A DNA stretch of 64,000 nt from Centroscyllium fabricii (lineage: Eukaryota). The notes under the pieces were generated by a model that saw only the letters and a list, made by a program, of their open reading frames with translations, did not search any database and was not told the DNA's origin. Position numbers and translations under genes: made by a program. The stretch lies in NCBI GenBank assembly GCA_051313645.2, contig JBNRSN020000029.1, positions 41,540,001-41,604,000 of the forward strand, in the 5' to 3' direction. Each line of letters starts with the position of its first letter. Position 1 is the stretch's first letter. Positions 211 to 62,803 of this stretch are shown one piece after another.

Positions 211-237
211 CTTTCCCTTTGCCTGACGGTGATGATT
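211..237 (-). CDS. 27-nt phase-1 microexon of the minus-strand coiled-coil gene (ESSPSGKGK)
   Basis: Minus strand: tctccttcgttttttacag|AATCATCACCGTCAGGCAAAGGGAAAG|gtaatt; strong pyrimidine tract, multiple of 3, open in phase 1. Confidence 0.7.
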
Positions 238-396
238 CTGTAAAAAACGAAGGAGATAATAATGTTTCAAATAGATACAGTTATATACACAATTAGTGTT
301 ATATTTCTCTTTAAGTTTTATAAGTGGTGGGTCTTGGTGAATGAATCTCCATACATAATGCATTTCTCAGAAAACACACAAGCTACTGCTTCAGTT

Positions 397-571
397 GGGA
401 TTATTTTAACTAATATAAATCGTCCGATATAAATTGAGGCACCCACTATACAACAAGCACTATCTTATTTGCCATTTAAGTCAATGGTAGTGGAAATCGG
501 TTGGGTGTATAATGGACGGCCAATTCAATATTGCCCATTTTAAACCATCACCCATAATTAAAATAACCCCC
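397..571. mobile_element. Small MITE with GGG(G/A)T(A/T)ATTTTAA-type terminal inverted repeats
   Basis: gggattattttaact ... aattaaaataacccc inverted ends; related copies near 12770-12917 and 19399-19596. Confidence 0.5.
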
Positions 572-2450
572 ATGAAATTTGCACATTCGCACAATTTGGA
601 GCAAATTCTGCAGACATCCATGACTAACAGCTCAAGCCATTTGATACACTTACAGTTACTTGCCCAAATAAATTATATGGGCTTTTGCACTCAAAGTGCC
701 TATCAGCCAACTATTCAAAAAGTGGAGCGTGCTCTACAGAGCATCTGGGAGCAGGCGAGAGGTTAAAGAGACAAAGCAACACGTACAAAACACATTTTAA
801 AAAAAAATTTAGATCTCCAAGGAAATACAATTCTATAGAAATTAGACTACAAAACTTTGTTTTCAGTACAAGAAAATTCGTTTGGCATTAATCCATACTT
901 ATCATGCCTTTGAAAAGATATTTACACTGAATTGCACAAACTCCATTTTTTCTGGCGAGAGTAGTCCGTATCTTTCAGGTATGTACAAGATATTTACAGT
1001 TGTTCAATGTATTTGCATAGTAATTCAGACTGCGCGATACCGGTGTCACGCAGCCTTTTTCAGGAGATGGGCAACCACCTGATTTTCGAGCGAAACTGCG
1101 CACTTGCAGTCGGCGGAAGCTGTAGTCCGAATTCAAAGTAAAAATAACTGTCAGCCTCACTTTTATTTCTACTGAAAAATCACGCCGAATATTTTTTTAG
1201 CAGTTTTTAATAGCTGTTAATCATTTGTGGGGGTGAACATTAATTTGCCCCACATGACAAAAATAACAGGCGGTTTCAAAGCAACGGATGGTTTTATAAT
1301 CTGCCCTGATAGCAATGGCAAAGCAAAATGGGCGGTACACATCAGGCTACTGCCCGTTTTTCACACTAAGGTAAAGCTGATTGCTCCCTTATCAGAGGAT
1401 AATTTTTTAAGCACCTAATGTTATATGTTATTGTCAGGGACGAAAAAATGTAATGTTTATAAACAAATTATATTTGCTCAGCAATGTCTCCCATGGTATC
1501 ATTCAAAGTCTCTAGTTTTAAACAAAATCACACAATAGCACGACTTGTCAATTTCAATATATGAGCCTAGAAATTGGGGAAGTCTGGAAAGCTGTCAGTA
1601 ACATTGGCGGCAAAATATAACGGCCACCGCCGAGAGAGCACAGGCAGTACTGGCATTTTGGTACTCATTAACAGCAGCGTGCCGGTGAATTGCTAGCGCA
1701 ACACCCACTGATTATCAGTGTCTAACAATATGACATCCAATTGTGAGTTTTGTCATATAATACAATCTGAATTCACCATCATAGGTAGCGAATGTATTGC
1801 GGTCCTGTTTGTTGGTCAGTTTAGGCAGATGGTATTCACTTATAAAATAAATGGAATGATGTTTAATTACCAAAAACTGTATCAACGCAAGTGAATTTGA
1901 ATTTATGAGTCTTATTTATTCGCGGATGTTTGGTTCATTTGTTGAGTCCAATTAATAGGAAATGGGTGAGCTTTTGTTGAGGGGTGACATTACTTACTGA
2001 CCCACAAACACCGTGGGCCTTCCGGCAAGCTGCCAGAAAGTGAAATCACGCCTTCCGTCCCCCCCCTCCCCGCAACACACTCACACACACACACGCACAC
2101 TGATGGGAAAAACAAAAGTTTAAAAGAATTACCTTGGCAAAGGAGGAGGTTGAAGTTCCGCCGTTAATCCTCTTAAGTCCTGCCATGCTCCTGAAGGCCG
2201 TAATGCTGCTGCAAGAACGTTTCCCCGCAGCACTCATGTCACAGCGCGGTCACGCTCCAATTCATTTAAATGCTGTCGCGGACAATAGGTAATCGCTATG
2301 CTTCCGGCCTGTGGACAATGGCGGCCGCCACGGGACATGCCGCCAAGTGATGGATGAGCGCCGACTGCCATTTTTCGCCATTTCATGGTGGTGGCGGGCG
2401 GCACAATCCACATGCATATCTCGGCCTGGGTCTCCAGAACGTACAGTTTT

Positions 2451-2502
2451 CAATTTTTAGTTAAAAAAAACTTGATTGGCATTAACAGGATACATCCCTA
2501 TG
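2451..2502 (-). mobile_element. Very short 5'-truncated copy of the RTE-X-like LINE 3' end
   Basis: Near reverse complement of catagggatgtatcctgtcatgccaat and the tail seen at 8470-8525. Confidence 0.55.
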
Positions 2503-2712
2503 TACAGACTGGCTTTCACAATCATTAGCAGTAGCATGTAGAAGCGCGACAACGGACACGATTTGCCTTTCAGCACAAATAATTTGTATTTGATTGCAGA
2601 GTCCAGTGCGGCAATTTTTACATTAGGCTGCCAACAATGTTCTCATTTATTCAGGAAGTATAAGTTACAAAGTGTAAATAAGAACTGCTGATAATAGTAT
2701 AAGGACATTCAT

Positions 2713-3915
2713 CATAGAAACACAGAAAAGCACAGAAAGAAATCATTCGGCATACCGAGTCTGCACCGGCTCTTTCCAAAAGCAGTCCTGTTAGTCCTGC
2801 TCGACGGTTCGTTCTCCGTATCCCTGTAATTTGTTTCCTTCAATATTTATCCAATTTACTTTTGAAAGCTAACATTACATCTATATCCGCCACCCAACAG
2901 GCAATGCATTCCAAATCCTCACCACTCGTTGCGTAAGAAAATGTTTAGTATTTATGTCGCCTCTGGTGTTTTAGCCAATCAACTAGAATCTGTGCCTTCT
3001 GGTGACAATCAACCATTCGAAATATTTTATCTTGACTTGCTCTATCTAAACCAATCATGATTTTAATCCACAGTGTCAAATTTTCTGTTAGCTTTCGCTG
3101 CTCAAAGAACAACTACTTCAGTTTCTCCAGTCCATCCACGTAACATGTAACCCCTCAACGCTGATATTTTTCTAGATAAAAGCTTCTACACCCTCTCAAA
3201 ATCCTTCAGGTTCTGCCTAAATTGTGGTGCCCAGAATCAAAAAAGTGCTCCAGTTGTGTTTGAACTAGTGTTCTATATATGTTTAGCAAAACTTTCTGGC
3301 TTTTGTACCCTACGAGTCTATTTCTAAAGCCCAGGATCAGAGAAGCTTTATTAACTGTTTTATTAACCATTTACCTTACAAAATTATGCACTATCAACCC
3401 AGGTCTCTGTGTTCATGCAGCCCATTTATAAATGTACAATTTAGGTTGTGATGTCTCTCATTTTACTTCCTACCAAAATGCATCACTTCACATTTCTTTG
3501 CTTTGCACCTTATCTGCCATGTATCCGCCAATCCCAACAGGCTGCCTGTGTCCTCTTGAAAGCTTTTACTGTCTTCCCCACTATCTGATATTCTCAAGTC
3601 TCGTGTCATCTGCGAATTTCGAAAATCTGCCCTGCAACCCAACGTACAATCTTTAATGTATAAGAAAAACAGAGTCATAGTACTAAACTCTGGGAACTCC
3701 AATTTATACCACCCAATAGTCAAAAAAAAGCCATTCACCAGACCTGTATGTTTTCAATTCCTCAGCCATTTTTGGATCCTTCTATCCCACGGGCGTCACG
3801 TTCTGTATCAAGCCTATAATGTGTTACTATATGAAGCGCCTTTTTAATGCCCATATACAAAACATCTACTGCACTACCCTTAACTGTCCTCTCGGCTACC
3901 TCAGCAAAAATACAA
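2713..3915 (-). mobile_element. Degenerate CR1 LINE (RT C-terminal half and 3' tail)
   Basis: Translations WQIRCKAKKCEVMHFGRK and FAEVAERTVKGSAVDVLYM resemble CR1 ORF2; catagaaac-type tail at 2713; many stops. Confidence 0.85.
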
Positions 3916-7921: not shown

Positions 7922-7924
7922 AAT

Positions 7925-8845: not shown

Positions 8846-8872
8846 CTTGATTCTTTTTATTCAATGCTTTCA
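8846..8872 (-). CDS. 27-nt phase-1 microexon (VKALNKKNQ)
   Basis: ttgtttgtgttttcttacag|TGAAAGCATTGAATAAAAAGAATCAAG|gtaaat. Confidence 0.78.
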
Positions 8873-9486: not shown

Positions 9487-9501
9487 CTGCATTGTCTAAA
9501 T
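9487..9501 (-). CDS. 15-nt phase-1 microexon (DLDNA)
   Basis: tttcttctttttcag|ATTTAGACAATGCAG|gtaagg; near-consensus sites; stop in phase 0, open in phase 1. Confidence 0.8.
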
Positions 9502-11338: not shown

Positions 11339-11365
11339 CTGTCTGCTTCTGCCTCAGTTTTTCTT
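11339..11365 (-). CDS. 27-nt phase-1 microexon (EEKLRQKQT)
   Basis: cgttgtcttaacag|AAGAAAAACTGAGGCAGAAGCAGACAG|gtaagc. Confidence 0.78.
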
Positions 11366-12287
11366 CTGTTAAGACAACGCTTGCGTGTCAAAATCAATTA
11401 GGAATAAAAAATAAACTTTCTGTAACTTTATGCTGAATACCAACTGAAGGCGATGCACACATTATCTAAGTTAGAGAACAATGAATATTTTGATTATCTC
11501 GTATCTGGTAAATTACTATTATGGATACAGCGTCAACATCGAGCTCTGTGTATAATGTTCTTGGCATTCTTCACGTTAACAAGAGTTACGTCGCGCTCAC
11601 CTCTATCTTTCAAATTTTGTGCACAATCGCCTATTGCTGAAAATCAAAACAAAATCACTGAATTGTTAATTTTCAGTCCAAGCACCTCTGCTTTGCACTT
11701 CGTAGAGCTTCAGTTCTTTAGCTTCATGTTATGGTTCATCTGTTTCTTTCTGTACAAAGTTCCAGATTTAATTATCAATCACATTAGCAGTCAGAATCAT
11801 CACATGACAATAGTGGATTGTTCGCAGTTTTATTTGTCTAACCCTTCGTCGAATTACATTTACAAATGCATCCTGAGATTAGCATACGTCAGAACAACAG
11901 TTCTTTCTTAATTGTATAAAAATCAGCACAACAATAAATTTTTGGGTTGCTTATAAACTAATAAAATGATGAAATTCAACTGTTAATGTTACAATTAATA
12001 TAAACTGCATCGACTTCCTTGATTACTCTTAATATTCGAGCCATAGTTGTATGGGGAATTGGGGCAGTCTGTTGTAAGTTAAATCCTCTGAATGATGGCC
12101 ACATTCAGAAAGCTTTTGTTTTCGTTGTGAGTACCATTTCGAATTCAAATTCAGAAGAAAATATGTCTATTCGAATGCATGCTTAAAGCAAGTAGAAATG
12201 TCAGGATACATCGACAATCGTAATTACGCAATGCATTTATGGAACAACTAATTTAATGCTAATGCCCTGCAGGTTTCTCTGATTTAC

Positions 12288-12311
12288 CTCTCAATTCCGC
12301 AGTTTTTTCCA
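12288..12311 (-). CDS. Candidate 24-nt phase-1 microexon (VEKTAELR)
   Basis: tctattttcgtccgttttatcag|TGGAAAAAACTGCGGAATTGAGAG|gtaaat; fits the frame but overlaps a possible old MITE terminus. Confidence 0.45.
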
Positions 12312-13512: not shown

Positions 13513-13539
13513 CAAGTAATCTTCGTAGATTATTGTTCT
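13513..13539 (-). CDS. 27-nt phase-1 microexon (ENNNLRRLL)
   Basis: aatttcttccaataatag|AGAACAATAATCTACGAAGATTACTTG|gtaaga. Confidence 0.75.
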
Positions 13540-13759: not shown

Positions 13760-13777
13760 CTCGTTTCAGCTGTTTTA
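13760..13777 (-). CDS. 18-nt phase-1 microexon (VKQLKR)
   Basis: tttgcttcctttcctccag|TAAAACAGCTGAAACGAG|gtaaga; near-consensus sites. Confidence 0.8.
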
Positions 13778-20285: not shown

Positions 20286-20312
20286 CGGTGCTTGATGAAA
20301 CGGCGGTCTTGT
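20286..20312 (-). CDS. 27-nt phase-1 microexon (DKTAVSSST)
   Basis: aataatgatattgcag|ACAAGACCGCCGTTTCATCAAGCACCG|gtgagt; strong donor, weak pyrimidine tract; xKTA start shared with the exon at 40514-40540. Confidence 0.6.
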
Positions 20313-21545: not shown

Positions 21546-21550
21546 ATATT

Positions 21551-25328: not shown

Positions 25329-25364
25329 CTGGATTCCGGCTCTCTCCTTTCAGCTTTTCGATTT
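25329..25364 (-). CDS. 36-nt phase-1 exon (EIEKLKGESRNP)
   Basis: ctgtttccacattcag|AAATCGAAAAGCTGAAAGGAGAGAGCCGGAATCCAG|gtgagg; paralogous to 62768-62803. Confidence 0.82.
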
Positions 25365-29837: not shown

Positions 29838-29864
29838 CTTTATCTTTCTCTGCGATTTGTTCTT
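29838..29864 (-). CDS. 27-nt phase-1 microexon (EEQIAEKDK)
   Basis: gtgcatttcccctcaatag|AAGAACAAATCGCAGAGAAAGATAAAG|gtaaat. Confidence 0.8.
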
Positions 29865-30383: not shown

Positions 30384-30419
30384 CTAAAGATTTGATAGTT
30401 TCCTTCAGTCTTCCGATGT
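30384..30419 (-). CDS. 36-nt phase-1 exon (DIGRLKETIKSL)
   Basis: ttttgtttttctgtttcag|ACATCGGAAGACTGAAGGAAACTATCAAATCTTTAG|gtgtga; xI.xLKE pattern shared with the other 36-nt exons. Confidence 0.78.
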
Positions 30420-40513: not shown

Positions 40514-40540
40514 CTTTCTCCTTTTCCTCAGCTGTTTTAT
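40514..40540 (-). CDS. 27-nt family microexon (NKTAEEKEK) with non-canonical acceptor (cat instead of cag)
   Basis: attatttttacctgcat|ATAAAACAGCTGAGGAAAAGGAGAAAG|gtaaat; an in-frame cryptic CAG lies 9 nt inside. Confidence 0.55.
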
Positions 40541-42805: not shown

Positions 42806-45800
42806 AAAATATAAGGGTGCCCATTCCAGTTAAAATATAAGGGTGCACTTTCCAATAAAAATATAAGGGTTCCCCATCTAATTAAAATAGAAGGGTGCCC
42901 TTTCTAATTAAGATATAAGGGTGCCCATTCAAATTGAAATATAAGGGTTCCCATTCTAATTAAAATATAAGGGTTCCCTTTCTAATTCAAACGTAAAGAG
43001 AACCTTTCTAATTAAAATATAAGGATACCCTTTCTAATTAAAATATAAGGGTTCCCATGCTAATTAAACTATAAAGGTTCACATTCTAATTAAAATATAA
43101 GGGTGCCCTTTCTAATTATAATATACGGGTTCCCATTCTAATTAAATTGTTAGTGTGCCCTTTCTAATTAAAATAAAAGGGTGCCCAATCTAATTGAAAT
43201 GTAAGGGTTCCCATTCTAATTAAAATATAGGTTTTCCCTTTCTTATTATAATATAAGGGTTCCCATTCTAATTAAAATATAAGGGTTCCCATTCGTATTA
43301 AAATTTAAGGCTGCCCTTCCTAATTAAAATATAAGAGTTCCCTTTCTAATAAAAATATAAGGGTTCCCATTCTAATTAAAATATAAGGGTTCCCATGCTA
43401 ATTAAAATATAAAGGTTCCCATTCTAACTAAAATATAAGGGTTCCCATTCTATTAAGAATATAAGGGTGCCATTCTAACCAAAATATAAGGGTGCCCATT
43501 CTAATAAAAATATAAGGGTTCCCATTCTAATTAAAACATAAGGGTGCACTTGCTAATTAAAATATAAGGGTGCCTTTTCTAATTAAAATTTAAGGGAGCC
43601 ATTTCTAATTATAATGTGAGGGTGCCCTTCCTAATTAAAATATAACGTTGCCATTTCTAATAAAAATGTAAGGGTTCCCTTTCTTTTTCAAATATAAGGG
43701 TTCCCATTCTAATTAAAATGTAAGGGTGCCCATTCTAATTAAAATATAAGGGTTCCAATACTAATTAAAATATGAGGTTGCCCTTTCTAATTAAAATATA
43801 AGGGTTCACATTCTAATTAAAATATAAGGGTTCCCTTTCTAGTTAAAATAATAGGTTGCCCATTCTAATTAAAATTTAAGGGTGCACATTCAAATTTAAA
43901 TATAAGGGTCCCCATTCTAATTTACATATATGGGCTCCAATTCTAATTAAAATATAAGGTTGCTCATTCTAATTAAAATATAATGGTTCCGTATCCAAAA
44001 AATATATAAGTGTTCCCATTTTAATTAAAATATAAGGGGTCCGTTTCTAATTAAAATGTAAGGGTTCCCATTCTAAATAAAATTGTTGTTCTCATTCTAA
44101 ATAAAATATAAGGGTGCCCTTTCTAATTAAAATATAAGGTTGCACTTTCTAATAAAAATATAAGGCTTCCCATTCTAAGTAAAATAAAATTGTTCCCATT
44201 CTAATTAAAATATATGTTTGCCCATTCTAAATAAAATATAAGGGTGCCCTTTCTAATTACAATAGAAGGGTTCCCATTCTAATTAAAATATAAGTGTTCC
44301 CATAATAATTAAAACATAAGGGTTCCCTTTCTAATTAAATTATAAGGGTTCGCATTCTAATAGATATATCAGGGTACACATTCTAATTAAAATATAATTG
44401 TTCCCATTCTAATTAAAATAAATTGTTGCCCATCCTAAATGAAATATAAGGGTGCCATTTCTAATTAAAAAGAAGGGTTCCCATTCTAATTAAAATATAA
44501 GGGTTCCCATTCTAATTAAAATATAATTGTTCCCATTCTAATTAAAATAAATTGGTGCCCATTCTAAATGAAATATAATGGTGCCATTTCTAATTAAAAA
44601 GAAGGGTTCCCATTCTAATTAAAATATAAGGGTTCCCATTTTAATTAAAATGTAAGGAGAACCTTTCTAATTTAAATATAAGGGTACCCTTTCTAATAAA
44701 AATATAAGGGTTCCCATGGTAATGAATCTATAAATGTTCACATTCTAATTAAAATATAAGGGTTCGCATTCTAATAAAAATATAAGGGTACCCATTCTAA
44801 TTAAAATATAATTGTTCCCATTCTAATTAAAATAAAAGGGTGCCCATTCTAAATTAAATATAAGGTTGCCCTTTCTAATTAAAAATAAGGGATCCCATTC
44901 TAATTAAAATGTAAGGGTTCCCATTACAATTAAAATTTAAGGAGAACCTTTCTAATTAAAATATAAGGGTACCCTTTCTAATTAAAATATAAGGGTTCCC
45001 ATGGTAATTAATCTATAAATTTTCACATTCTAAATAAAATATAAGGGTGCCCTTTCTAATTAAAATATAAGGGTTCCCATTCTAATTAAAATGTAAGGGT
45101 GCCCTTTCTAATTAAAATATAAGGGTTCCCATTCTAATTAAAAAATAAGGGTGCCCTTTCTAATTAAAATAAAAGGGTGCCCAATCTAATTGAAATGTAA
45201 ATGTTCCCATTCTAATTAAAATATAGGTTTTCCCTTTCTAATTATAATATAAGGGTGCCCATTCTAATTAAAATATAAGGGTGCCCATTCTAATAAAAAT
45301 ATAAGGATGCCCTTTCTAATTAAAATATAATGGTTCCCATTATAACTAAAATATAAGATTCCCATTCTAATTAAAATTTAAGGCTGCCCTTCCTAATTAA
45401 AATATAAGGGTGCCCTTTCTAATTAAAATATAAACGTTCCCATTCTAATTAAAATATAAGGGTTCCCTTTCAAATAAAAATATAAGGGTTCCCATTCTAA
45501 TAAAAATATAAGGGTGCCCATTCTAATTAAAATATAAGTGTTCCCATTCTAATTAAAATATAAGGGTGCACTTTCTAATTAAAAGATAAGGGTGCCTTTT
45601 CTAACTAAAATACAAGAGAGCCATTTCTAATTATAATGTAAGGGTGTCCTTCCTAATTAAAATATAAGGGTGCCCTTTCTAATTAAAATATAAGGGTTCC
45701 CATTCTAATTAAAATGTAGGGGTGCCCTTTCTAATTAAAATAAAAGGGTGCCCAAACTAATTGAAATGTAAAGGTTCCCATTCTAATTAAAATATAAGTT

Positions 45801-48800
45801 TTCCCTTTCTAATTATAATATAAGATTTCCCATTTTAATTAAAATATAAGGGTGCCCATTCTAATAAAAATATAAGGTTGCCCATTCCAGGTAAAATATA
45901 ATGGTTCCCATTCTAACTAAAATATTAGGGTTCCCATTCTAATAAAAATATAAGGGGTCCCATGCTAATTAAAATATAAGGGCGCACATTCTAACTAAAA
46001 TATAAGGGTTGCCATTCTAATAAGAATATAAGGGTGCCCTTTCTAATAATAATATAAGAGTTCCCAAGCTAATTAAAATATAAGGGTTCCCATTCTAATT
46101 AAAATATAAGGGCTCCCATTCTAATTAAAATATAAGGGTGCCCATTCTAATAAAAATATAAGGTTTCCCATTCTAATTAAGATATAAGGGTGCCCATTCT
46201 AATAAAAATATAAGGGTGCCCATTCTGATAAAAATATAATGGTTCCCATTCTAACTAAAATTTAAGGCTGCCCTTCCTAATTAAAATATAAGGGTGCCCA
46301 TTCTAATAAAAATATAAGGGTGCCCATTCTGATAAAAAATATAAGGGTTCCCATTCTAATTCAAATATATGGGTGCTTTTTCTAATTAAAATATAAGGGT
46401 GCCTTTTCTAATTAAAATATAAGGGAGCCATTTCTAATTATAATGTAAGATTGCCCTTTCTAATTAAAATATAAGGGTGCCCTTTCTAATTAAAATATAA
46501 GGGTTCCCATTCTAATTAAATTGTAAGTGTGCCCTTTATAATTAAAATAAAAGGGTGCCCAACCTGATTGAAATGTAAAGGAGCCAATTCTAATTAAAAT
46601 ATAAGTTTTCCCTTTCTAATTATAATGTCAGGGTTCCCATTCTAATTAAATTATAAGGGCACCCATTCTAATTAAAATATAAGGGTTCCCATGCTAAATA
46701 AACTATAAGGATTCCCTTTCTAATTAAAATATAAGGGTTCACATTTTAATAAAAATATAGGGGTACGCATTATAATTAAAATATAAGGGTTCCCATGCTA
46801 ATTAAAATATAACGGTTCCCTTTCTAATTAAAATATAAGGGTTCGCATTTTAATAAAAATATAAGGGTACCCATTCTAATTAAAATATAATTGTTCCCAT
46901 TCTAATTATAATAAAAGGGTGCCCATTCTAAATGAAATATAAGGGTGCTCTTCCTAATTAAAATATAAGGGTTCCCTTTCTAATTAAAATCTAATGGTGC
47001 CCATTCTAATTAAAATATAAGGGTGCCCTTTCTAATTAAAATATAAGGGTATGCATTCTAATAAAAATATAAGGGTACCCATTCTAATTAAAATATAATT
47101 GTTCCCATTCTAAATAAAATATAAGGGTGCCCATTCTAAATAAAATATAAGGGTGCCCTTTCTAAATAAAAAGAAGTGTTCCCATTCTAATTAAAATATA
47201 AGGGTTCCCATTCTAATTAAAATACAAGGGTGCACATTCTACTTAAAATATAAGGGTGCCATTTCTAAGTAAAATATGTGGGTGACTTTTCTAATAAAAA
47301 TATAAGGGTTCCCATTCTAATAAAAATATAAGGGTTCCCTTTTTAATAAAAATATAAGGGTTCCCTTTAAAATTAAAATGTAAGGGTGACCTATCTAAAT
47401 AAAATAAAGGGGTGCCCATTTGTAATTAAAATATAAGGGTTCCCATTCTAATTAAAATATAAAGGTTCCCATTCTAACTAAAATTTAAGGGTGCCCTTTC
47501 TAATTAAAATAGAAGGGTTCACATTCTAATTAAAATATAATGATTCCCATTCTAACTAAAATATAAGGGTTCCCATTCTAAATAAAAATTAAGGGTGCCC
47601 TTCCTAATTAAAATATAAGCGATCCCTTTCTAATTAAAATATAAGTTGGACCTTTCCAATTAAAATATAAGGTTTCCCATTCTAATTAAAATATAACGGT
47701 TCCCATTCTAATTAAAATATAAGTGTTCCCATGCTAATTAAAATATAAGGGTTCCCTTTCGAATTAAAATATAAGGGTTCCCTTTCCATTTAAAATATAA
47801 GTGTTCCCATTGTATATAAAATAAAAGTGTGCCCTTTCTAATTAAAATATAAGGGTGCCCTTTCTAATTAAAATATAAGTGTAAAAAATCCTAATTGAAA
47901 TATAAGGCTTCCCATTCTAATTAAAATATAAGGGTTCCCATTCTAATTATAATATAATGTTTCCCTTTCTAATTAATATATAAGGTTTCCCTTTCCAATT
48001 AAAATGTAAGTGTGCCTTTCTAATTAAAATATAAGGGTTCCCATTATAATTAAAAAATAAGGGTGCCCTTTCTCATCAATATATAAGGGTTCCCATTCTA
48101 TTTAAAATATAATGGTACTCTTTCTAATTAAAATATTAGAGTGCCCATTCTAATTAAAATATAGGGGTGCCCTTTCTAATTGTAATATAAGATTTCCAAT
48201 TCTAATATAAAAATAAGGGTGCCCTTTCTAATTAAAATATAAGGGTGCCCTGTCTAATTAAAATATAAATGTTCCCCTTCTAATAAAAATATAAATGGGC
48301 CCTTTCCAATTAAAATATAAAGGTTTCCATTCTGATTAAAATATAATTGTTCCCTTTCAAACTAAAATATAAAGGTGCCCCTTCTAATTAAAATATAAGG
48401 GTTCCCTTTCTAATTAAAATAAAAGGGTGCCCTTTCTAATTAAAATATAAGGGTTCCCTTTCTAATTAAAATATAAGGGTTCCCTTTCTAATTAAAATAT
48501 AAGGGTGCCTTTTCAAATTAAAATATAAAGGTACCCAATCTAATTAAATTATAAGGGTTCCCTTTCGAATTAAAATATAAGGGTTCCCATGCTAATAAAA
48601 ATGTAAGAGTTCCCATTCTAATAAAATATAAGTGCGCCCTTTCTAATTAAATCATAAGTGTGCGCTTTCTAATTAAAATTTAACAGATCAATTTCTAATT
48701 AAAATATAAGGGTGCCTTTCTAATTAAAATATAAGTGTTCCCATTCTAATTAATATATAAGGGTTCCCATTCTAATTAAGATATAAGCGTGCCCTTTCTA

Positions 48801-51800
48801 ATTAAATCATAAGTGTGCACTTTCTAATTAAAATTCAACAGATCAATTTCTAATTAAAATATAAGGGTGCCTTTCTAATTAAAATATAAGTGTTCCCATT
48901 CTAATTAAAATATAAGTTTGCCCTTTCAAATTAAAATATAAGTGTTCCCATTCTAATTAATATATAAGGGTTCCCATTCTAATTAAGATATAAGCGTGCC
49001 CTTTCCAATTCAAATATATGTGCGCCCTTACTAATTAAAATATATGGGTGCCCTTTCTTATTAAAATATACGTGTGCCCATTCTAATTAAAATATAAGGG
49101 TTCCCATTCAATTCAGGTTTTAACGGTGCCCTTTCTACTTAAAATAAAAGGGTTCCCATTCTAATTAAAATATAAGTGTGCCCTTGCTAATGAAAATATT
49201 AGTGTTCCCATTCTAATTAAAATATAAGTGTTCCCATTCTAATTAAGATATAAGGGTAACCTTTCTAATTAAAATATAAGGGTACCCATTGTTATTAAAA
49301 TATAAGTTTGCTTTTTCCAATAAAAAGATAATGGTGCCCTTTCTAATTAAAATATAAGGGGCCCTTTCTAATTAAAATATAATGGTGCCGTTACTAATTA
49401 AAATATAAGAGTGCCCTTTCTAATTGAAATATAAGGCTTCCCATTCTAATTAAAATATAAGGGTTCCCATTATAATTAAAATATAAGGGTTCCCATTCTA
49501 ATTAAAATATAAGGGTTCCCATTCTAATTAAAATATAAGGGTTCCCTTTCTAAATAAAAGATAAATGTTCCCTTCCCAATTAAAATATAAGGGTTCCCAT
49601 TCTAAATAAATTATAAGGGTGCCCTTTATAACTAAAATGGAAGGGTTCCCATTATAATTACAATATAAGGGTGCCCTTCCTAATTAAAATATAAGAGTTA
49701 CCATTATAATTAAAATATAAGTGTTCCCATTCTAATTAAAATATAAGGGTTCCCTTTCTAATTAAAATATAAGGGTTCCCATTCCACATAATATATAAGG
49801 GTGCCCTCTCTAAATAAATATAAGGGTACCCATTCTAATTAAAATATAAGGGTGCCAATTCTTATTAAAATAAAAGAGTGCCCTTTGAAATTAAGATATA
49901 GGGATGCCCTTTCCCAATTAAAATATAAGAGCTAATATTCGAATTAAATTATGAGTTCCCCTTCTAATTAAATATTAGGATACCCATGCTAATTAAAATT
50001 TAAGGGTGCCCTTTCTAATTAAAATAGAAGGGTTCCCTTTCTAATTAAAATATAAGGGTGCCCTTTCAAATTAAAATATAAAGGTGCCCATTCTAATTAA
50101 AATATAAGGGTTCCCTTTCTAATTAAAATATAAGGGTTCCCATGCTAATAAAAATATAAGGGTTCCCATTCTAATAAAATATAAGTGCGCCCGTTCTAAT
50201 TAAATCATATGTGTGCGCTTTCTAATTAAAATTTAACAGATCAATTTCTAATTAAAATATAAGTGTGCCTTTCCAATTAAAATATAAGTGTTCCCATTCG
50301 AATTAAAATATAAGTTTGCCCTTTCAAATTAAAATATAAGAGTTCCCATTCGAATTCAAATATAAGCTTTCCCTTTATAATTAAAATGTAAGTGTTCCCA
50401 TTCTAATTAATATATAAGGGTTCCCATTCTAATGAAGATATAAGCGTGCCCTTTCCAATTCAAAAATATGTGTGCCCGTTATAATTAGAATATAAGGGTT
50501 CCCATTCTAATTAAAATATAAGGGTGTCCTTTCTAATTAAAATATACGTGTGCCATTTCTAAGTAAAATATAAGTGTGCACTATCTAATTAAAATAAAAG
50601 GGTGCCAATTCTAATTAAAATATAAGCATGCCAATTCTAATTAAAATATAAGGGTGCCCTTTCTAATTAAAATATAAGGTGCACTTTCTAAATAAAATAT
50701 AAGGGTTCACCTTCTAATTAAAATATAAGGGTGTCCTTTCTAATTAAAATATAAGGGTCCCATTTCTAATTAAAATATAAGGGTTCCCATTCCAATTAAA
50801 ATAGAAGGGTTCCCTTACTAATTAAAATATAAGTGTGCCCTTACTAATTAAAATATAAGGGTGCCCTTTCTTATTAAAATATACATGTGCCCATTCTAAT
50901 TAAAATATAAGGGTTCCCATTCAATTAAGGTTTTAACGGTGCCCTTTCTACTTAAAATAAAAGGGTTCACATTCTAATTAAAATATAAGTGTGCCCTTGC
51001 TAATGAAAATATTAGTCTTCCCATTCTAATTAAAATATAAGTGTTCCCATTCTAATTAAGATATAAGGGTAACCTTTCTAATTAAAATATAAGGGTTCCC
51101 ATTCTATTTAAAATATATGGGTTCCCATTCTAATTAAAATATAAGAGTGCCCTTTCTAATTAAAATATAGTGGTTCCCATTCTAATTAAAATATAAGGGT
51201 GCCCTTTCTAATTAAAGTATAATGGTGCCCTTTCTAATTAAAATATAAGGGTACCCATTGTTATTAAAATATAAGTTTGCTTTTTCCAATTAAAAGATAA
51301 TGGTGCCCTTTCTAATTAAAATATAAGGGGCCCTTTCTAATTAAAATATAATGGTGCCGTTACTAATTAAAATATAAGGGTGCCCTTTCTAATTGAAAAA
51401 TAAGGGTTCCCATTCTAATTAAAATATAAGGGTTCCCATTCTAATTAAAATATAAGGGTTCCCATTCTAATTAAAATATAAGGGTTCCCATTCTAATTAA
51501 AATATAAGGGTTCCCTTTCTAAATAAAAGATAAATGTTCCCTTCCCAATTAAAATATAAGGGTTCCCATTCTAAATAAATTATAAGCGTGCCATTTATAA
51601 CTAAAATAGAAGGGTTCCCATTATAATTACAATATAAGGGTGCCCTCTCTAAATAAATATAAGGGTTCCCATTCTAATTAAAATATAAAGGTGCCAATTC
51701 TTACTAAAATAAAAGAGTGCCCTTTGAAGTTAAGATATAGGGGTGCCCTTTCCAATTAAAATATAAGAGTTAATATTCGAATTAAATTATGAGTTCCCCT

Positions 51801-54800
51801 TCTAATTAAATATTAGGATACCCATGCTAATTAAAATTTAAGGGTGCCCTTTCTAATTAAAATAGAAGGGTTCACATTCTAATTAAAATATAATGATTCC
51901 TATTCTAACTAAAATATAAGGGTTCCCATTCTAATTAAAAATTAAGGGTGCCCTTCCTAATTAAAATATAAGGGATCCCTTTCTAATTAAAATATAAGTG
52001 GGACCTTTCCAATTAAAATATAAGGTTTCCCATTCTAATTAAAATATAAGGGTTCCCATGCTAATTAAAATATAAGGGTTCCCTTTCGAATTAAATAATA
52101 AGGGTTCCCTTTCCATTTAAAATATAAGTGTTCCCATTGTATATAAAATAAAAGTGTGCCCTTTCTAATTAAAATATAAGGGTGCCCTTTTTTAATTAAA
52201 ATATAAGGGTAAAAAATCCTAATTGAAATATAAGGCTTCCCATTATAATTAAAATATAAGTGGGCACATTCCAATTGAAATATAATGGTTTCCATTATGA
52301 TTAAAATATAAGGCTGCTCTTTCTAATTAAAATATAAGGGATCCCATTCTAATTAAAATATAAGGGTTCCCATTCTAATTATAATATAATGGTTCCCTTT
52401 CTAATTAAAATATAAGGGTTCCCTTTCCAATTAAAATATAAGTGTGCCTTTCTAATTAAAATATAAGGGTTCCCATTATAATTAAAAAATGAGGGTGCCC
52501 TTTCTCATCAATATATAAGGGTTCCCATTCTATTTAAAATATAATGGTACTCTTTCTAATTAAAATAATAGAGTGCCCCTTCTAATTAAAATATAGGGGT
52601 GCCCTTTCTAATTGTAATATAAGATTTCCAATTCTAATATAAAAATAAGGGTGCCCTTTCTAATTAAAATATAATGGTGCCCTGTCTAATTAAATTTAAG
52701 TGTTCCCCTTCTAATTAAAATATAAGTGGGCCCTTTCCAATTAAAATATAAAGGTTTCCATTCTGATTAAAATATAAGGGTCCCCATTGTAATTAAAATA
52801 TAATTGTTCCCGTTCAAACTAAAATATAAAGGTGCCCCTTCTAATTAAAATATAAGGGATCCCTTTCTAAATAAAATATAAGGGTGCCCTTTATAACTAA
52901 AATAGAAGTGTTCCCATTATAATTACAATATAAGGGTGCCCTTCCTAATTAAAATATAAGGGTTACCATTCTAATTAAAATATAAGGGTTCCCTTTCTAA
53001 TTAAAATATAAGGGTTCCCATTCCATATAATATATAAGGGTGTCCATAAATAAATATAAGGGTTCCCATTCTAATTAAAATATAAGGGTGCCAATTCTTA
53101 ATAAAATAAAAGAGTGCCCTTTGAAATTAAGATATAGGGGTGCCCTTTCCAATTAAAATATAAGAGATAATATTCGAATTAAATTATGAGTTCCCCTTCT
53201 AATTAAATATTAGGATACCCATTTTAATTAAAATATAGGAGTTCCCTTTCTAATTAAAATATAAGTTTTCCCTTTCTAATTAAAATATAAGGGTTCCCAT
53301 TCTAATTAAAATATTAGGATTCCCATTCTAATTAAAATATAAGAGTTCCGTTTCTAATTAAAGTATAAAATTTCCCATTCTAATTGAAATATAAGGGTTC
53401 CCTTTCTAACTAATATATAAGGGTTCCCTTTCCAATTAAAATATAAGGGTTCCCATTCTACATAAAATAAAAGAATGCCATTTCTAATTAAAATATAAGG
53501 GATCCCTTTCTAAATAAAATATAAGGGTGCCCTTTATAACTAAAATAGAAGTGTTCCCATTATAATTACAATATAAGGGTGCCCTTCCTAATTAAAATAT
53601 AAGGGTTACCATTCTAATTAAAATATAAGGGTTCCCTTTCTAATTAAAATATAAGGGTTCCCATTCCATATAATATATAAGGGTGTCCATAAATAAATAT
53701 AAGGGTTCCCATTCTAATTAAAATATAAGGGTGCCAATTCTTAATAAAATAAAAGAGTGCCCTTTGAAATTAAGATATAGGGGTGCCCTTTCCAATTAAA
53801 ATATAAGAGATAATATTCGAATTAAATTATGAGTTCCCCTTCTAATTAAATATTAGGATACCCATTTTAATTAAAATATAGGAGTTCCCTTTCTAATTAA
53901 AATATAAGTTTTCCCTTTCTAATTAAAATATAAGGGTTCCCATTCTAATTAAAATATTAGGATTCCCATTCTAATTAAAATATAAGAGTTCCGTTTCTAA
54001 TTAAAGTATAAAATTTCCCATTCTAATTGAAATATAAGGGTTCCCTTTCTAACTAATATATAAGGGTTCCCTTTCCAATTAAAATATAAGGGTTCCCATT
54101 CTACATAAAATAAAAGAATGCCATTTCTAATTAAAATATAAGGGATCCCTTTCTAAATAAAATATAAGGGTGCCCTTTATAACTAAAATAGAAGTGTTCC
54201 CATTATAATTACAATATAAGGGTGCCCTTCCTAATTAAAATATAAGGGTTACCATTCTAATTAAAATATAAGGGTTCCCTTTCTAATTAAAATATAAGGG
54301 TTCCCATTCCATATAATATATAAGGGTGTCCATAAATAAATATAAGGGTTCCCATTCTAATTAAAATATAAGGGTGCCAATTCTTAATAAAATAAAAGAG
54401 TGCCCTTTGAAATTAAGATATAGGGGTGCCCTTTCCAATTAAAATATAAGAGATAATATTCGAATTAAATTATGAGTTCCCCTTCTAATTAAATATTAGG
54501 ATACCCATTTTAATTAAAATATAGGAGTTCCCTTTCTAATTAAAATATAAGTTTTCCCTTTCTAATTAAAATATAAGGGTTCCCATTCTAATTAAAATAT
54601 TAGGATTCCCATTCTAATTAAAATATAAGAGTTCCGTTTCTAATTAAAGTATAAAATTTCCCATTCTAATTGAAATATAAGGGTTCCCTTTCTAACTAAT
54701 ATATAAGGGTTCCCTTTCCAATTAAAATATAAGGGTTCCCATTCTACATAAAATAAAAGAATGCCATTTCTAATTAAAATATAAGGGTGCCCTTTCTAAT

Positions 54801-55432
54801 TAAAATATAAGTGTAACAAATTCTAATTAAAATATAAGGCATCCCATTCTAATTAAAATATAAGTGGGCACTTTCCAATTAAAATATAAGGTTTTCCATT
54901 CTGCATAAAATATAAGGCTGCCCTTTCTAATTAAAATATAAAAGTTTCCATTCTGATTAAAATATAAGGGTCCCCATTCTAATTAAAATATAAGGATTCC
55001 CTTTCAAACTAAAATATAAAGGTGCCCATTCTAATTAAAATATAAGGGTTCCCATTCTAATTAAAATAAATGGGTGCCCTTTCTAATTAAAATATAAGGG
55101 TTTCCATTCTAATTAAAATTTAAGGGTTCCCCTTCTAATTAAAATATAAGTGCTCCCTTTCTAATTAAAATATAAGTGTGCCCATTCTAATTAAAATATA
55201 AGGGTGCCCTTTCTAATTAAAATATAAGTTTGCCCTTTCTAATTAAAATATAAGGGTTCACATTCTAATTAAAATGTAAGTTTGCCCTTTCTAATTAAAA
55301 TATAAGGGTTCACATTCTAATTATAATGTAAGGGTGCCCTTTCTAATTAATATATAAGGGTTTCCATTCTAATTAAAATATAAGGGTTCCCATTCTAATT
55401 AAAATATAGTGCTGCCCTTTCTAATTCAAATA
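42805..55432. repeat. Satellite array, 26-bp monomer TTCTAATTAAAATATAAGGGT(T/G)CCC(A/T), about 12.6 kb (roughly 480 copies)
   Basis: Continuous tandem repetition of diverged monomers; 643-bp higher-order unit x3 at 52856-54784. Confidence 0.98.
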
Positions 55433-55435
55433 TGC

Positions 55436-59259: not shown

Positions 59260-59279
59260 TGCACCCCTTCTTTGAAAAT

Positions 59280-61505
59280 TTAGTCCGGCTGGGTGAAAGG
59301 ACAGAGCAGTTCATAATAAGTCTCTCCAGCGGTCGCGTCTGCCTTGAGGATCACCGGGTCTCTGTTAGCGGCGCTGGTGCCTGTAGTGTCGGCAGCGCTG
59401 GTGCCAGTATTGTCGGTGCTGGTGTCGGTAGTGGCGGTGGGGCCGGGCCCTCCAGTGGCTGTGGTGCGGCGGCCAGTTCTTGGTCCTCGGCTGATAGTGG
59501 CGGGGGCTCCGGTGTGTGTGTGTGCATAGGCCAAAATCCGGTGGGTTGTGGTTGGTGTGTAGGCCAGTGTTCGGTAGGTAGTGACTGGTCGGGCTGAGGC
59601 TCGACAAGGGGCTCTGCTGTGGTGCTCCCGGCGGGCGCTAGGTCCCTGATGGAAACTGTGTCCTCGCGCCCGTCCGGGAACTGCACGTATGCGTACTGTG
59701 GGTTAGCATGCAGCAGCTGCACCTTCTCCACCAGGGGGTCGGTCTTATGGCCGCGGACATGCTTTCTAAGTAAGACTGGCCTCGGCATCGTGAGCCATCG
59801 TGGGAATTCTGTCCCCGAAGTCGACTTCCCCGAAGTCGACTTCCTGGGGAAGGAAAAGAGCAATTCGTGAGGTGTGGCATTGGTAGCCATACACAGCAGA
59901 GAGCGGATGGAGTGCAGCACGTCTGGGAGGACTGCCTGCCAACGGGACACTGGAAGGCCTATGGACTTCAGGGACAGGCTGACCGCCTTCCAGATGATCC
60001 CGTTCTCCCTTTCTACCTGGCCGTTCCCCGGGGGTTGTAACTGGTCGTTCTGCTTGAGGCAACCCCTTTCTGAAGCAGAAACTGACGCAGTTCGTTGCTC
60101 ATGAACTACGACCCCCGGTCGCTATGGATGTAGCTGGGGAGACCGACAATGGCGAACAACGTGGTGAAGTGTTTGATCACCGTTGTGCTCGTCATATCTG
60201 GGCAGGGGAAGGCGAAGGGGAAGCGGGAGAACACGTCTACGACCGTGAGGAAGTACGAGTTGCGGTCGGTGTAGGGGAGGGGGCCTTTGAAGTCCACGCT
60301 TAGACTTTCAAAAGGGCGGGTGGCCTTAATGAGGTGTGCCGTGTCTGGCCTGCAAAATTGGGGTTTGCAGTCGGCTCAAACAGGGCACTCTCGGGTCATA
60401 GCCTTGATCTCCGTGATGGAGTAGGGGAGGCTACGGGACTTAACGAAATGGGCAAGTCTGGTGATACCCGGGTGGCAGAGGCAATTGTGGAGTTCCTTCA
60501 GCCGGTCTAGCTGGGCACTGGCGCACAGTGCGTCCGGGGGTTCATTGAGTTTGGCTGGTAGGTAAAGAATGTCGTACTCATAAGTCGAGAGCTCGATCCG
60601 CCACCGCAGGATCTTATCATTCTTGATTTTACCCTTTTGTTTATTGTTAAACATAAACACGACCGACCGTTGGTCGGTGAGCAGGGTAAAACACTTACCA
60701 GCCAGGTAATGACGCCAGTAGTGCACGACCTCCACGATGGCCTGGGCCACCATTTCCACTGCAGAGTGGCGAGTTTCGGGTCCCTGTAGGGTGCAGGAGA
60801 AAAACGCTACGGGCCTGCCTGCCTGATTCAGGGTGGCAGCAAGGGCAAATTCCGAAGCGTCACTCTCCACCTGGAAAGGGATGGACTCATCAACGGCGTG
60901 CATGGCTGCCTTGATAATATCTACCTTGATCCGGGCGAACGCCGTGTGGGCTTCTACCGAGAGGGGGAAGATGGCAGCCTTGAGGAGCGGTCTGGCCTTA
61001 TCCGCGAACTGGGGAACCCATTGCGCATAATAAGAGAAAAATCCCAGACATCTCTTCAGGGCTTTGGGGTTGTGAGGTAGGGGCAGTTCCTGTAAGGGAC
61101 GCATACGCTGTGGGTCGGGGACGAGGACCCCGTTTTCCACCACGTATCCGAGGATGGCGAGCCGATCTGTACTAAAGATGCAAATATCTTTAATGTACAT
61201 GAGATCGAGCCGTTTCGCCATGTGGAGAAATTTGGCCAGATTGGCATTGTGGTCCTGCTGATCATGGCCGCAGATGGTCACGTTGTCCAGGTAGGGGAAA
61301 GTGGACTGCAACCCGTTCTGGTCAACCATGCAGTCCATCTCCCTCTGGAATACCGACTCCGCATTGGTCACGCCGAAGGGGACCCGGAGGAAGTGGTAGA
61401 GCCGACCGTTCTCCTCGAAGGCAGTGTACGGGCGGTCGGCTTTCCGGATCGGGAGTTGGTGATACGCCAACTTAAGGTCGATTGTGGAGAACACCTTGTA
61501 CTGGG
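59280..61505 (-). pseudogene. pol: Gypsy pol (RT-RNase H-integrase), disrupted and truncated within RT
   Basis: FSTIDLKLAYHQ, YTAF, PFGVTNA, PYLDNV, ESDASEFAL, HNCLCHPG..CPV, DFKGP, VVDVFSRF, HSDRG; stops and frameshifts. Confidence 0.95.
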
Positions 61506-61805
61506 TGTGGTAACCATTATATATGTACGCTTTTACCACCTCAATATTGTGCCAATATTGTATTGCATGTATAGCGGCCGGGTGCATAATACACTGCACT
61601 GTATTGCGACACTGTCGCGGGGTCAGGTCAGCCACACCTCTAACTCCTCCCCTCAGGTGAGTGCCTTATAGGTGGGGACTGATGTGCCCCCATCCATTCT
61701 GTACCTGATGTTCGATCGGAGCGTAGCTCCTTTGTAAGCTAATAAAAGCCTATAGTTAAGGTAACTACGCGTCTTTAGTTTTATTAGACTATTGATGATA
61801 CGTCA
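61506..61805 (+). mobile_element. 5' LTR (300 bp) of Gypsy element B, opposite orientation
   Basis: TGTGGTAACC...GATACGTCA; homologous to the reverse complement of 58978-59259 but with a diverged 5' U3. Confidence 0.92.
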
Positions 61806-61832
61806 ATTTTATTAGCTTAGAAAAATTCTAAA

Positions 61833-62390
61833 ATGGAGAGCGGCGCTGTAAAACCCGAAAAGCTGGACATTAGTCCACAGGACCCAGCCGCCGCCAACAC
61901 CTTCAAACACTGGTTCGGCCTCGTGGAGGCCTACATGGACGCCGCCAAGGCTACAACCGACGGGAACAAGCTACATGTTCTCCGGTCCAGGATCTCCAGC
62001 CGGGTATTCTCCATCATCCGTGATGCCACAACGTATATTGAAGCAGTGGCGAAACTGAGGAAATGCTACGAGCGCCCGGTCCCCTCAGTGTACGCCAGAC
62101 ATGTGCTCGCGACCAGACCACAACTACTGAGTGAGTCTAATGAGCAGTACCAGCTGGCACTCCAAGCCCTTGTCCAGGCCTGTGGCTGCCAACCATGGAC
62201 GGCACAAGAGGAGGCAAACCTCCTCGTCCGGGACGCCTATGTAACGGGACTCAGGTCCGCAGAGGCCCGCCAGCGGCTGCTGGAAAAAGACACTCTAACT
62301 CTGGACGAGGCGATCTCTATCTCCAACGCTGTGGAGGGCGCACGCCCCAAGCTACAGGCGTACGGCGGCCCAAACCCACACCAGACGTAG
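61833..62390 (+). CDS. gag: Gypsy gag N-terminal part (185 aa, 3'-truncated)
   Basis: ATG 28 nt after the LTR; ARHVLATRPQ..ES..Y..AL..L...C and VRDAYVTGLRS...RQRLLE..TLTL gag motifs; ends at a junction with MITE sequence. Confidence 0.85.
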   Translation: MESGAVKPEKLDISPQDPAAANTFKHWFGLVEAYMDAAKATTDGNKLHVLRSRISSRVFSIIRDATTYIEAVAKLRKCYERPVPSVYARHVLATRPQLLSESNEQYQLALQALVQACGCQPWTAQEEANLLVRDAYVTGLRSAEARQRLLEKDTLTLDEAISISNAVEGARPKLQAYGGPNPHQT

Positions 62391-62592
62391 ATTTTTAAAG
62401 GCTTTCAACGGACGGAGGTTCTGCAGAAAGTGAAACGCTCCACCCGCAGAAGCCCTCCTCCAAGACAGGCAGATGATCTGTCAAGGGGATTGTTGACATG
62501 CACTGCGCATGCCTGAAACCAGTGCTTTTGAGTTCCCTGCGGGTGTGTACACGGCTCGTACACACCCGTATGGATCAGAAAATACGGGCTCA
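62391..62592. mobile_element. Right end of a Harbinger-like MITE
   Basis: Hairpin cgggtgtgtacacggctcgtacacacccg and terminus ggatcagaaaatacgggct as in other copies. Confidence 0.75.
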
Positions 62593-62767
62593 CAGTTTGA
62601 TTGAAATTGCTCGTTTATGAAGCTGTAGCAAGATGCCTAGTCTATTAGAATGGCGTCCATGTCAAAAAGAGATACATTTTAAATAAATCCTTAACAGCAG
62701 CTTCCATTCATTGGATTATTTATACTGGTCTATAAACTCAGTATGGAACTCTGTCGATATTCCTCAC

Positions 62768-62803
62768 TTGATTCACCGGAAGCCTCTTTCAACTTTTCGA
62801 TTT
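62768..62803 (-). CDS. 36-nt phase-1 exon (xIEKLKEASGES), the most 5' exon found in the window
   Basis: attatttttcttccag|AAATCGAAAAGTTGAAAGAGGCTTCCGGTGAATCAA|gtgagg; paralogous to 25329-25364. Confidence 0.82.

Follow-up and report, generated by a model that had tools for sequence, protein, structure and literature searches.

A 1.7-Mb array of phase-1 microexons in Centroscyllium fabricii, related in design to butyrophilin and chicken BG genes yet distinct from both

In chicken BG genes, a long heptad coiled coil is encoded by numerous tiny exons whose first codon is split. The length of the coil varies through splicing, and the genes are on an MHC-bearing chromosome (sections of PMC4046983, PMC5938342 and PMC8813856). 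According to the same sections, BG genes lack a B30.2 domain and have an IgV domain and a membrane segment, and their 13-36 exons measure 21 or sometimes 24 nt. The soluble BG tail, or 'zipper protein', indicates that a heptad tail without a B30.2 domain can function (part of PMC4046983). Micro-exon genes of Schistosoma also have coding regions made of tiny exons, mostly of triplet length; these undergo alternative splicing and were overlooked by annotation (sections of PMC10526429).

We found a microexon array in C. fabricii whose gene is related in design to, yet distinct from, butyrophilin and chicken BG genes. Like BG, it is predicted to specify a heptad rod from tiny exons with a split first codon on an MHC-bearing chromosome, although it is ~35 Mb from the MHC and not adjacent. 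In contrast to BG, the array contains ~250 exons of 27, 36, 24 or 18 nt, no Ig exon was found, and there is an intact B30.2 exon at its end. BG has no B30.2; here, of two microexon blocks, block A has a dead B30.2 of its own and that of block B is intact. As in butyrophilins, heptad exons come before a terminal B30.2 exon, with a putative linkage between the intact B30.2 and the window (the whole 64,000-nt stretch of DNA that was analyzed). The exon preceding the intact B30.2 is 27 nt long and phase 1, as in butyrophilins; this is the size found in BTN and TRIM genes. Butyrophilins have few heptads and an IgV-IgC-membrane organization, whereas no Ig exon was found at the array locus. TRIM-B30.2 proteins share the coiled coil plus C-terminal PRY-SPRY, but the locus and related models have no RING or B-box, and their B30.2 belongs to a separate clade. 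In public databases, the labels 'zinc-binding protein A33-like' and 'TRIM39-like' appear to reflect the B30.2 match alone. Enterophilins, which are mammalian, have a long leucine zipper of ~30 heptads and a B30.2 domain. A review connects them with SNX1 and EGFR (part of PMC13749957). Likened by layout alone, they are the closest in domains (soluble heptad rod, C-terminal B30.2, no Ig or RING). The Schistosoma genes are an analogy with no known relationship: they have 10-20 exons and make short secreted proteins, unlike the at least ~1,500 residues of coiled coil predicted here, where no signal exon was found. We found no description of the family in the openly accessible literature, searched by title and start of abstract. 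TRIM, butyrophilin and B30.2 are all absent from the text of PMC10751288.

The window is a slice of block A and contains 14 microexons on the minus strand (211..62803). An earlier note on this DNA had claimed 12 minus-strand segments with GT donors. All are present at the places it implied, and on re-reading, the lengths total 330 nt, 11/12 end in G and 11/12 have an AG acceptor, as claimed. Eleven of the 12 stand unchanged. Exon 2, drawn as 27 nt after an AT acceptor, is better placed at another boundary, and two exons (12311-12288, 24 nt, and 11636-11601, 36 nt) had been overlooked. We rejected the 27-nt version of exon 2; an 18-nt version (40531-40514) has a canonical AG. Exact AG, GT and open frame at the 18-nt boundary are kept in 30/30 paralogous copies, and an AG at the 27-nt position is absent in all 11 copies displayed (window copy included). 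The corrected set of 14 exons is 381 nt when spliced, with zero stops.

The window microexons are real. The first (62768..62803, 36 nt, phase 1) belongs to a locally amplified 36+18 unit and has 32 paralogs, with AG and GT kept in 31. It is followed on the minus strand by the phase-1 18-nt exon 2 (40514..40531), a 36-nt exon (30384..30419; acceptor score 12.6, donor 6.2; two paralogs), a 27-nt exon (29838..29864; 4/4 paralogs intact) and a 36-nt exon (25329..25364; AG/GT kept in 11 paralogs). The 27-nt Ser/Thr-rich, hinge-like exon at 20286..20312 (donor 10.1) is the least certain of the set because its acceptor scores -0.3 and it has no paralog. Next are exons of 18 nt (13760..13777; acceptor 11.2, donor 10.1) and 27 nt (13513..13539; 5.6, 7.4), then the two newly added exons of 24 nt (12288..12311; 8.7, 8.1) and 36 nt (11601..11636; 8.5, 9.8). 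The remaining exons are of 27 nt (11339..11365; 3.4, 11.2), 15 nt (9487..9501; 12.1, 11.6) and 27 nt (8846..8872; 11.2, 9.0), and the last is a 27-nt Gly/Ser/Pro hinge-like exon (211..237; 12.9, 8.8). A paralog is absent for 9 of the 14, which therefore rest on splice signals, frame and position. Between 8,700 and 13,900 of the window, six substitutions and three indels were all intronic; exons are only 3% of this stretch, so the observation is uninformative. Four sequencing runs behaved as DNA contigs, with no splice joint at the exons, and say nothing about expression; no RNA data set was listed for the distal B30.2 exon of the array.

Strand, length and phase statistics set these exons apart from chance matches. 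Using an approximate splice matrix and a K/E filter that was picked after the exons had been seen, we counted 12 candidates on the minus strand of the window and 1 on the plus strand. Sixty third-order Markov simulations of the window averaged 0.53 candidates and never exceeded 3. This comparison with K/E-rich pseudo-exons on the plus strand and in simulated sequence, similar to one that the earlier note had proposed with shuffled sequence, came out in favor of the exons. Over 1.86 Mb and with no composition filter, AG..GT pairs on the minus and plus strands numbered 85 vs 5 at 27 nt, 77 vs 2 at 36 nt, and 29 vs 6 at 24 nt. A comparable minus-strand excess was absent at other lengths from 12 to 60 nt, and at 21 nt, the BG-type exon size, there was no excess (12 vs 11). 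Phase 1 was open in 84/85 of the 27-mers and 76/77 of the 36-mers; phase 0 was open in 10/77 of the 36-mers. At a score of at least 20, there were 245 candidates on the minus strand and 3 on the plus strand.

The array consists of ~247 (about 250) phase-1 exons on the minus strand over 1.7 Mb, from ~+442 kb to -1,260 kb (outside the window, coordinates are the position on the contig, C811, minus 41,540,000). Candidates with any of five motifs judged repeat-derived or off-type were removed before counting. The counts hold an estimated 3-18 false candidates, based on the plus-strand rate, and miss real exons, including two of the window's and several others recovered through paralogs. Block A extends from ~+442,000 (5' limit uncertain) to -668,789 and is followed by a decayed B30.2 exon (from -683,971), block B (-709,640 to -1,260,045) and the intact terminal B30.2 exon (-1,269,395 to -1,269,915), all on the minus strand. 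A paralog with its own B30.2 is the upstream neighbor on the same strand (+647,859 to +505,242). Among the 36-nt exons of block A, 85% have a hydrophobic residue at position 1, 94% at position 4 and 35% at position 8, and the split codon encodes Glu at 86/157 junctions. These placements and the phase counts bear out the claim of symmetric phase-1 microexons encoding a coiled coil. The donor of the final block-A exon is perfect, and the three exon types that close block A also precede the last microexon of the neighbor gene. Close block-A paralogs are absent for ~35 exons at the start of block B.

A scan of the flanks for B30.2, suggested in the earlier note, identified the intact exon downstream of the window. 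This distal exon, which terminates the array, is phase 1 with a stop and an AATAAA, is 56% identical to a catshark RefSeq model, and matches SPRY (E 3.3e-9). The neighbor copy matches SPRY and PRY, and its closest solved structure is BTN3A1 (PDB 4n7i, E 2.6e-30). The internal copy is decayed: it has a stop and frameshifts, with divergence even over codon positions, and its first 29 codons have diverged to about the same degree as the remainder. Its acceptor is intact. The homologous AATAAA is lost, and other AATAAA sequences are 1.1 and 1.4 kb past its stop. The 27-nt penultimate exon type, present before the two intact copies on the contig, was looked for before the decayed exon and not found. 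Many further B30.2 exons of undefined type are elsewhere on C811. In a B30.2 tree with rows chosen among search hits and the decayed copy excluded, 13 of 38 rows formed a separate clade at 100/100, including three intact copies of C. fabricii; its named members are exclusively sharks and rays. The distal B30.2 groups with four elasmobranch RefSeq fragments at 100/100.

Chaining of exons to a catshark RefSeq model (P0001) gave a score of 464 for block B, vs 106-228 for 15 exon-order shuffles. Block A scored only 201, within the block-B shuffle range. Block-B exon lengths equal catshark residue spacings (371/380/389; 410/419/428/440/449; 505/517/526; 572/581/590), and the distal exons are colinear with the predicted model XP_038671249.1. 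This and other elasmobranch RefSeq fragments (XP_038671246.1, XP_072329362.1, XP_069775418-28, XP_043533988-9, XP_060706632.1 and XP_078422387.1) belong to the same family as the array gene. They are predicted models, shorter (175-945 aa) and with unrelated names, and none was seen to cover the window exons; among named shark and ray relatives, the longest that we found has 945 aa. When scanned, six related models from sharks and rays that contain B30.2 showed SPRY and no Ig, RING or B-box. Nine predicted isoforms from Narcine differ by in-frame blocks of 12, 11, 23, 8 and 8 aa. Together with the catshark model, these predicted isoforms give indirect support for splicing of the C. fabricii exons. 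The clade and the fragmentary, misnamed models agree with the earlier proposal of a lineage-restricted, poorly annotated gene, and in-frame blocks of 8-23 aa among RefSeq isoforms of relatives agree with its proposal that symmetric microexons vary the length. A profile search among proteins of 30-116 residues found no short fragments of the family. Giant coiled-coil-B30.2 proteins in Lates and other relatives begin with signal-peptide-like sequences; we rejected orthology to these because their B30.2 is in another clade.

The earlier note also suggested BG/butyrophilin membership and a flank scan for IgV and transmembrane exons. Neither the scan nor the other comparisons supported membership: no Ig or convincing membrane exon was found, exons are 27, 36, 24 or 18 nt and not 21 nt, and the B30.2 clade is separate. 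Of 33 IgV and 32 butyrophilin-type IgC (C2-set, PF22705) matches in the genome, none is on C811; the best BTN-type Ig exons are on contigs C1500, C324 and C800. IgV was also not found by tblastn over 1.99 Mb, or with a 12-sequence profile against 16,313 minus-strand ORFs. The search of the locus reached 66 kb upstream of the neighbor's first microexon. For RING/B-box, the best tblastn match at the locus was no better than E 0.7, and a 38-sequence profile found none. Hydrophobicity scans of the 5' gaps for a membrane or signal exon gave frames at chance level, none convincing. Because no Ig exon, RING/B-box exon or clear membrane anchor was found, we conclude that the gene is probably not a butyrophilin, BG or TRIM gene. 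ATG-plus-donor and CpG scans and mutual BLAST of three 5' gaps gave no convincing start exon. The 30-nt exon at 421,403 contains one candidate start, an in-frame ATG whose -3 position is A. Basic motifs are present in 5' candidate exons; the one at 428,642 resembles a furin site, which would be compatible with secretion. Both genome matches to MHC class II alpha are on C811 (4.26 and 5.01 Mb), ~35 Mb from the array.

Duplicated exons show conserved structure. We tested 45 block-B exons; 32 had a block-A counterpart identified via flanks and 13 had no match. Leaving out two redundant block-B exons gave 30 non-redundant pairs, and 30/30 keep AG/GT, length and frame at ~28% flank divergence (chance ~3e-9 or less). 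The exon bodies are 75% identical vs 72% for the flanks, dN/dS is 0.67 (bootstrap 0.47-0.96), and 55/68 hydrophobic positions are kept. The internal B30.2 is decayed, yet 30/30 upstream duplicates are intact, so the window exons are either joined by splicing to the distal B30.2 or form a headless rod. We lean toward splicing through to the distal B30.2.

Our somewhat favored model, drawn from the genomic sequence, is that there is one gene, in which the window exons are part of the 1.7-Mb array, the decayed B30.2 is skipped, and the transcript would end in the intact B30.2 1.27 Mb downstream. A copy of the 3' part of the gene, with its terminal exon, may have come to sit inside the gene. The inserted terminal exon would then have decayed while its microexons were kept, giving a longer rod. 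Splicing would bypass the decayed B30.2 and join block A to block B and the intact B30.2. We predict an oligomeric rod, soluble and probably located in the cytoplasm, with at least ~2,350 residues; at 0.15 nm per residue, its length would be ~350 nm. Such a rod would act as a spacer for ligand-binding B30.2 heads and would resemble a butyrophilin/BG tail, hugely lengthened and lacking an ectodomain. Skipping of symmetric exons would tune the length, and selection would act mainly on length, frame and heptad pattern, and less on exact sequence. More tentatively, this could be a single 1.7-Mb unit with at least 250 coding exons, nearly all of 36 nt or less, lengthened by internal duplication with silencing of a terminal exon. 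It would be among the highest vertebrate exon counts (titin has 363) and would encode a rod of ~350 nm, with its length set by splicing, that carries a shark- and ray-specific B30.2 sensor. Such a gene would be a third, MHC-linked design, not yet described, alongside butyrophilin/BG and TRIM.

Block A could instead stop at the decayed exon, since that exon keeps its acceptor and is followed by the two AATAAA sequences, and the ~35 front exons of block B may be the front of a separate gene because they have no close block-A paralog. There would then be two tandem genes, an arrangement we consider rather unlikely. Gene A (~160-180 exons, ~1,500 residues, window included) would terminate in the first 29 codons of the decayed exon as a stub, giving a headless rod like the BG 'zipper protein', and block B would be a separate rod-plus-B30.2 gene. 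The intact acceptor, the AATAAA 1.1 kb past the stop, the three exon types at the end of block A, the unlike front of block B, the separate pieces modeled in relatives and the functional BG heptad tail without B30.2 (part of PMC4046983) are consistent with this arrangement. However, divergence of the stub is similar to that in the remainder of the dead exon, both the homologous poly(A) signal and the penultimate exon are missing there, and no first exon common to the three 5' gaps was found.

It is improbable that the product is a butyrophilin/BG-type membrane receptor or a secreted protein, with signal, Ig or membrane exons that are too divergent or further upstream and the neighbor B30.2 as an alternative last exon. 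The absence of Ig matches on C811 (0/32 IgC, 0/33 IgV) and in the 1.99 Mb, the six relatives with SPRY and no Ig, and the other B30.2 clade of the Lates-type proteins argue against it, set against the match of the neighbor B30.2 to BTN3A1, MHC class II alpha on the contig, the signal-peptide-like N-termini in Lates and other relatives, and the basic motifs in 5' candidate exons. That the window segments match by chance, or are remnants of a dead gene, we regard as very improbable. Such a reading could draw on the dead B30.2 of block A, the 9/14 window exons with no paralog, and exon bodies that diverge almost as fast as their flanks, but it conflicts with the strand, length and phase statistics and with splice sites and frame kept in 30/30 block-A duplicates and 30/30 copies of the 18-nt exon.

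Our results indicate that megabase genes made almost wholly of exons shorter than 40 nt can go unannotated in vertebrate genomes, with relatives publicly modeled as fragments under unrelated names (golgin-like, A33-like, butyrophilin-like). Sections of PMC5938342 and PMC8813856 raise the questions of the origin of the chicken BG tail and of a possible cooperation between heptad rods and 'orphan' B30.2 domains. Bearing on both, sharks keep rod and B30.2 in one gene, with no ectodomain detected, and the C. fabricii genome also has a rod that lost its own B30.2. The array is a natural example of sequence drift (dN/dS ~0.7) with retention of splice sites, frame and heptad pattern, the behavior that a molecular ruler would show.

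We found that the window, positions 41,540,001-41,604,000 of contig C811 in a 7.2-Gb genome, contains a series of real microexons on the minus strand. The closest protein relatives mark the organism as an elasmobranch. All 12 segments described in the earlier note were present there, confirming that observation. The second of them fits better as an exon of 18 nt that opens after a canonical AG at 40,531, a boundary kept in 30/30 paralogs. Two further exons, at 12,311 and 11,636, had been missed, and the corrected set is 14 exons (381 nt) free of stops. With a filter picked after the exons had been seen, the window yielded 12 candidates on the minus strand and 1 on the plus strand, compared to a mean of 0.53 and a maximum of 3 in 60 simulations. 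Candidates collected without the filter over 1.86 Mb gave stronger support, with minus to plus counts of 85 vs 5 (27 nt), 77 vs 2 (36 nt) and 29 vs 6 (24 nt); almost all opened in phase 1. Splice sites were scored with an approximate weight matrix, and the sequence examined around the window comprised 1.93 Mb of flank on the same contig (C811) and 70 kb of contig C1233.

The window is part of an array that spans about +442 kb to -1,260 kb (relative to the start of the window; negative values are downstream). At scores of at least 19, block A (+442 to -669 kb), which holds the window, contained 158 exons (4,482 nt) and block B (-710 to -1,260 kb) 89 exons (2,550 nt), counts that contain a few false candidates and omit some genuine exons. 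Introns had a median length of 3.8-4.5 kb. The 36-nt exons encode hydrophobic residues at positions 1, 4 and 8, the codon split at exon junctions is Glu in most cases, and 36- and 27-nt exons tend to alternate, giving three heptads per pair. Pro is nearly missing, and scattered Gly/Ser exons look like hinges. After the last 27-nt exon of block B there is an intact phase 1 B30.2 exon on the minus strand (-1,269,395 to -1,269,915; distal B30.2), with a TGA and an AATAAA.

Between about +66,000 and +330,000, a unit of 36+18 nt is present in about 30 local copies, some of them duplicated in tandem as 10-12-kb segments. This unit encodes a repeat of 18 residues, not 21, in which Cys is frequent, and its 18-nt exon seems to have arisen when a 27-nt exon gained an inner AG. 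The intron between the first two window exons is 22 kb, vs about 400 bp in paralogous units, because it is stretched by a 26-bp satellite (about 488 copies, 42,798-55,433) and an LTR-type retrotransposon reading frame (reverse transcriptase and RNase H; 60,379-61,665, minus strand).

The distal part of the array has an ortholog in catshark. The distal B30.2 shares 56% identity with that of XP_038671249.1, a 945-aa model with a coiled coil plus SPRY. Block B chained to this protein in order with a score of 464, compared to 106-228 in 15 shuffles, and residue spacings in the protein match block B exon lengths. Therefore, XP_038671249.1 joins orthologous exons as predicted. Block A had a score of just 201, so the window's own exons fall outside the coverage of this test. 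In-frame blocks of 8-23 aa distinguish nine Narcine isoforms; these isoforms and the other shark and ray RefSeq relatives are predicted models.

When 38 B30.2 domains were placed in a tree, the three intact B30.2 domains of this genome and ten others, six of them named shark or ray models, formed one clade (100/100) that was separate from Lates-type giant coiled-coil-B30.2 proteins and from proteins bearing RING or Ig domains. Neither Ig nor RING domains were present in the related models scanned (6/6). One of the three intact copies belongs to an upstream paralog of the same build (505,242-647,859; about 40-45 microexons), and groups with Narcine XP_069775385.1 and catshark XP_038672308.1; no start exon was found in the 66 kb read upstream of it. 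The third (C1233, 1.630-1.647 Mb, minus strand) has just three candidate microexons ahead of it within 65 kb, of 24, 15 and 27 nt. Further B30.2 exons form dense clusters on C811, C25, C800, C125 and C1433 (552 candidates, 150 scored). Four proteins of 1,300-2,600 aa (two from Lates), with names such as 'interaptin', combine a B30.2 with a giant coiled coil and an N-terminus that resembles a signal peptide; they fall in a separate clade and so perhaps represent a convergent secreted design. In four others, three from named fish, 3 to 8 tandem B30.2 domains lie after a PYRIN domain. Judged from titles and abstract openings, we found no description of a microexon coiled-coil-B30.2 family.

The earlier note had suggested a coiled coil perhaps of the butyrophilin/BG type. 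This reading was supported in part: the heptad microexon coiled coil held up; membership in butyrophilins or BG did not, and TRIM also fails. No IgV, IgC, RING, B-box or PYRIN exons were found in 1.99 Mb of the locus, and butyrophilin-type Ig matches were on other contigs (0/32 and 0/33 on C811). Nor did we find a convincing exon for a signal peptide, a membrane segment or the start of the array gene, with 66 kb read upstream of the neighboring paralog. Both MHC class II alpha matches (2/2) are on C811, about 35 Mb from the window. In domain layout, enterophilins appear closest to the array gene. Published accounts describe chicken BG tails built from 13-36 exons of 21 nt, together with an IgV and a membrane segment, and butyrophilins with few heptads and a B30.2 (PMC4046983, PMC5938342, PMC8813856). 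Schistosome MEGs (PMC10526429) are an analogy only to the microexon array.

We found a second, decayed B30.2 exon between the blocks, at -683,971. At the DNA level it shares 70% identity with the distal B30.2. Codon 30 is a stop, there are gaps of 2, 2 and 1 nt, and the AATAAA is missing from its homologous position. Four DNA runs, from no more than two samples of which one may be the source of the assembly, had the same breaks. Around this exon there were 15 variable sites in 1.2 kb, compared to 9 differences over a 5.2-kb part of the window. The decayed exon closes a duplicated segment, in which the stretch from -449 to -684 kb corresponds to that from -884 to -1,160 kb together with the terminal exon. 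Flanks located a block A counterpart for 32/45 block B exons. The AG, GT, length and frame were kept in 30/30 non-redundant pairs at about 28% flank divergence; therefore, block A stayed under selection while its own B30.2 died. These 30 pairs had 58% amino-acid identity and a dN/dS of 0.67 (0.47-0.96), and 55/68 hydrophobic positions were kept. As judged from these alignments, selection is on frame, length and heptad pattern more than on exact sequence.

Our results lean toward the notion that a copy of the gene's 3' part was inserted inside the gene, that the inserted terminal B30.2 exon decayed and is spliced past, and that one transcript would encode a rod at least 2,350 residues and about 350 nm long, with B30.2 at its tip. 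However, block A might also terminate in a 29-codon stub of the decayed B30.2, making a headless rod like zipper protein, the soluble protein of chicken BG-tail heptads. This main alternative is less probable; in its favor, the acceptor of the decayed exon survives and there is an AATAAA 1.1 kb further on. A membrane or secreted form is unlikely. A dead array, set beside the intact A/B pairs, is very unlikely.

The single B30.2-tipped product would work like a butyrophilin or BG tail, greatly lengthened. If it behaves as BG tails and TRIM proteins do, the rod would oligomerize in the cytoplasm and hold paired B30.2 binding heads at a distance, and exon skipping would tune its length.
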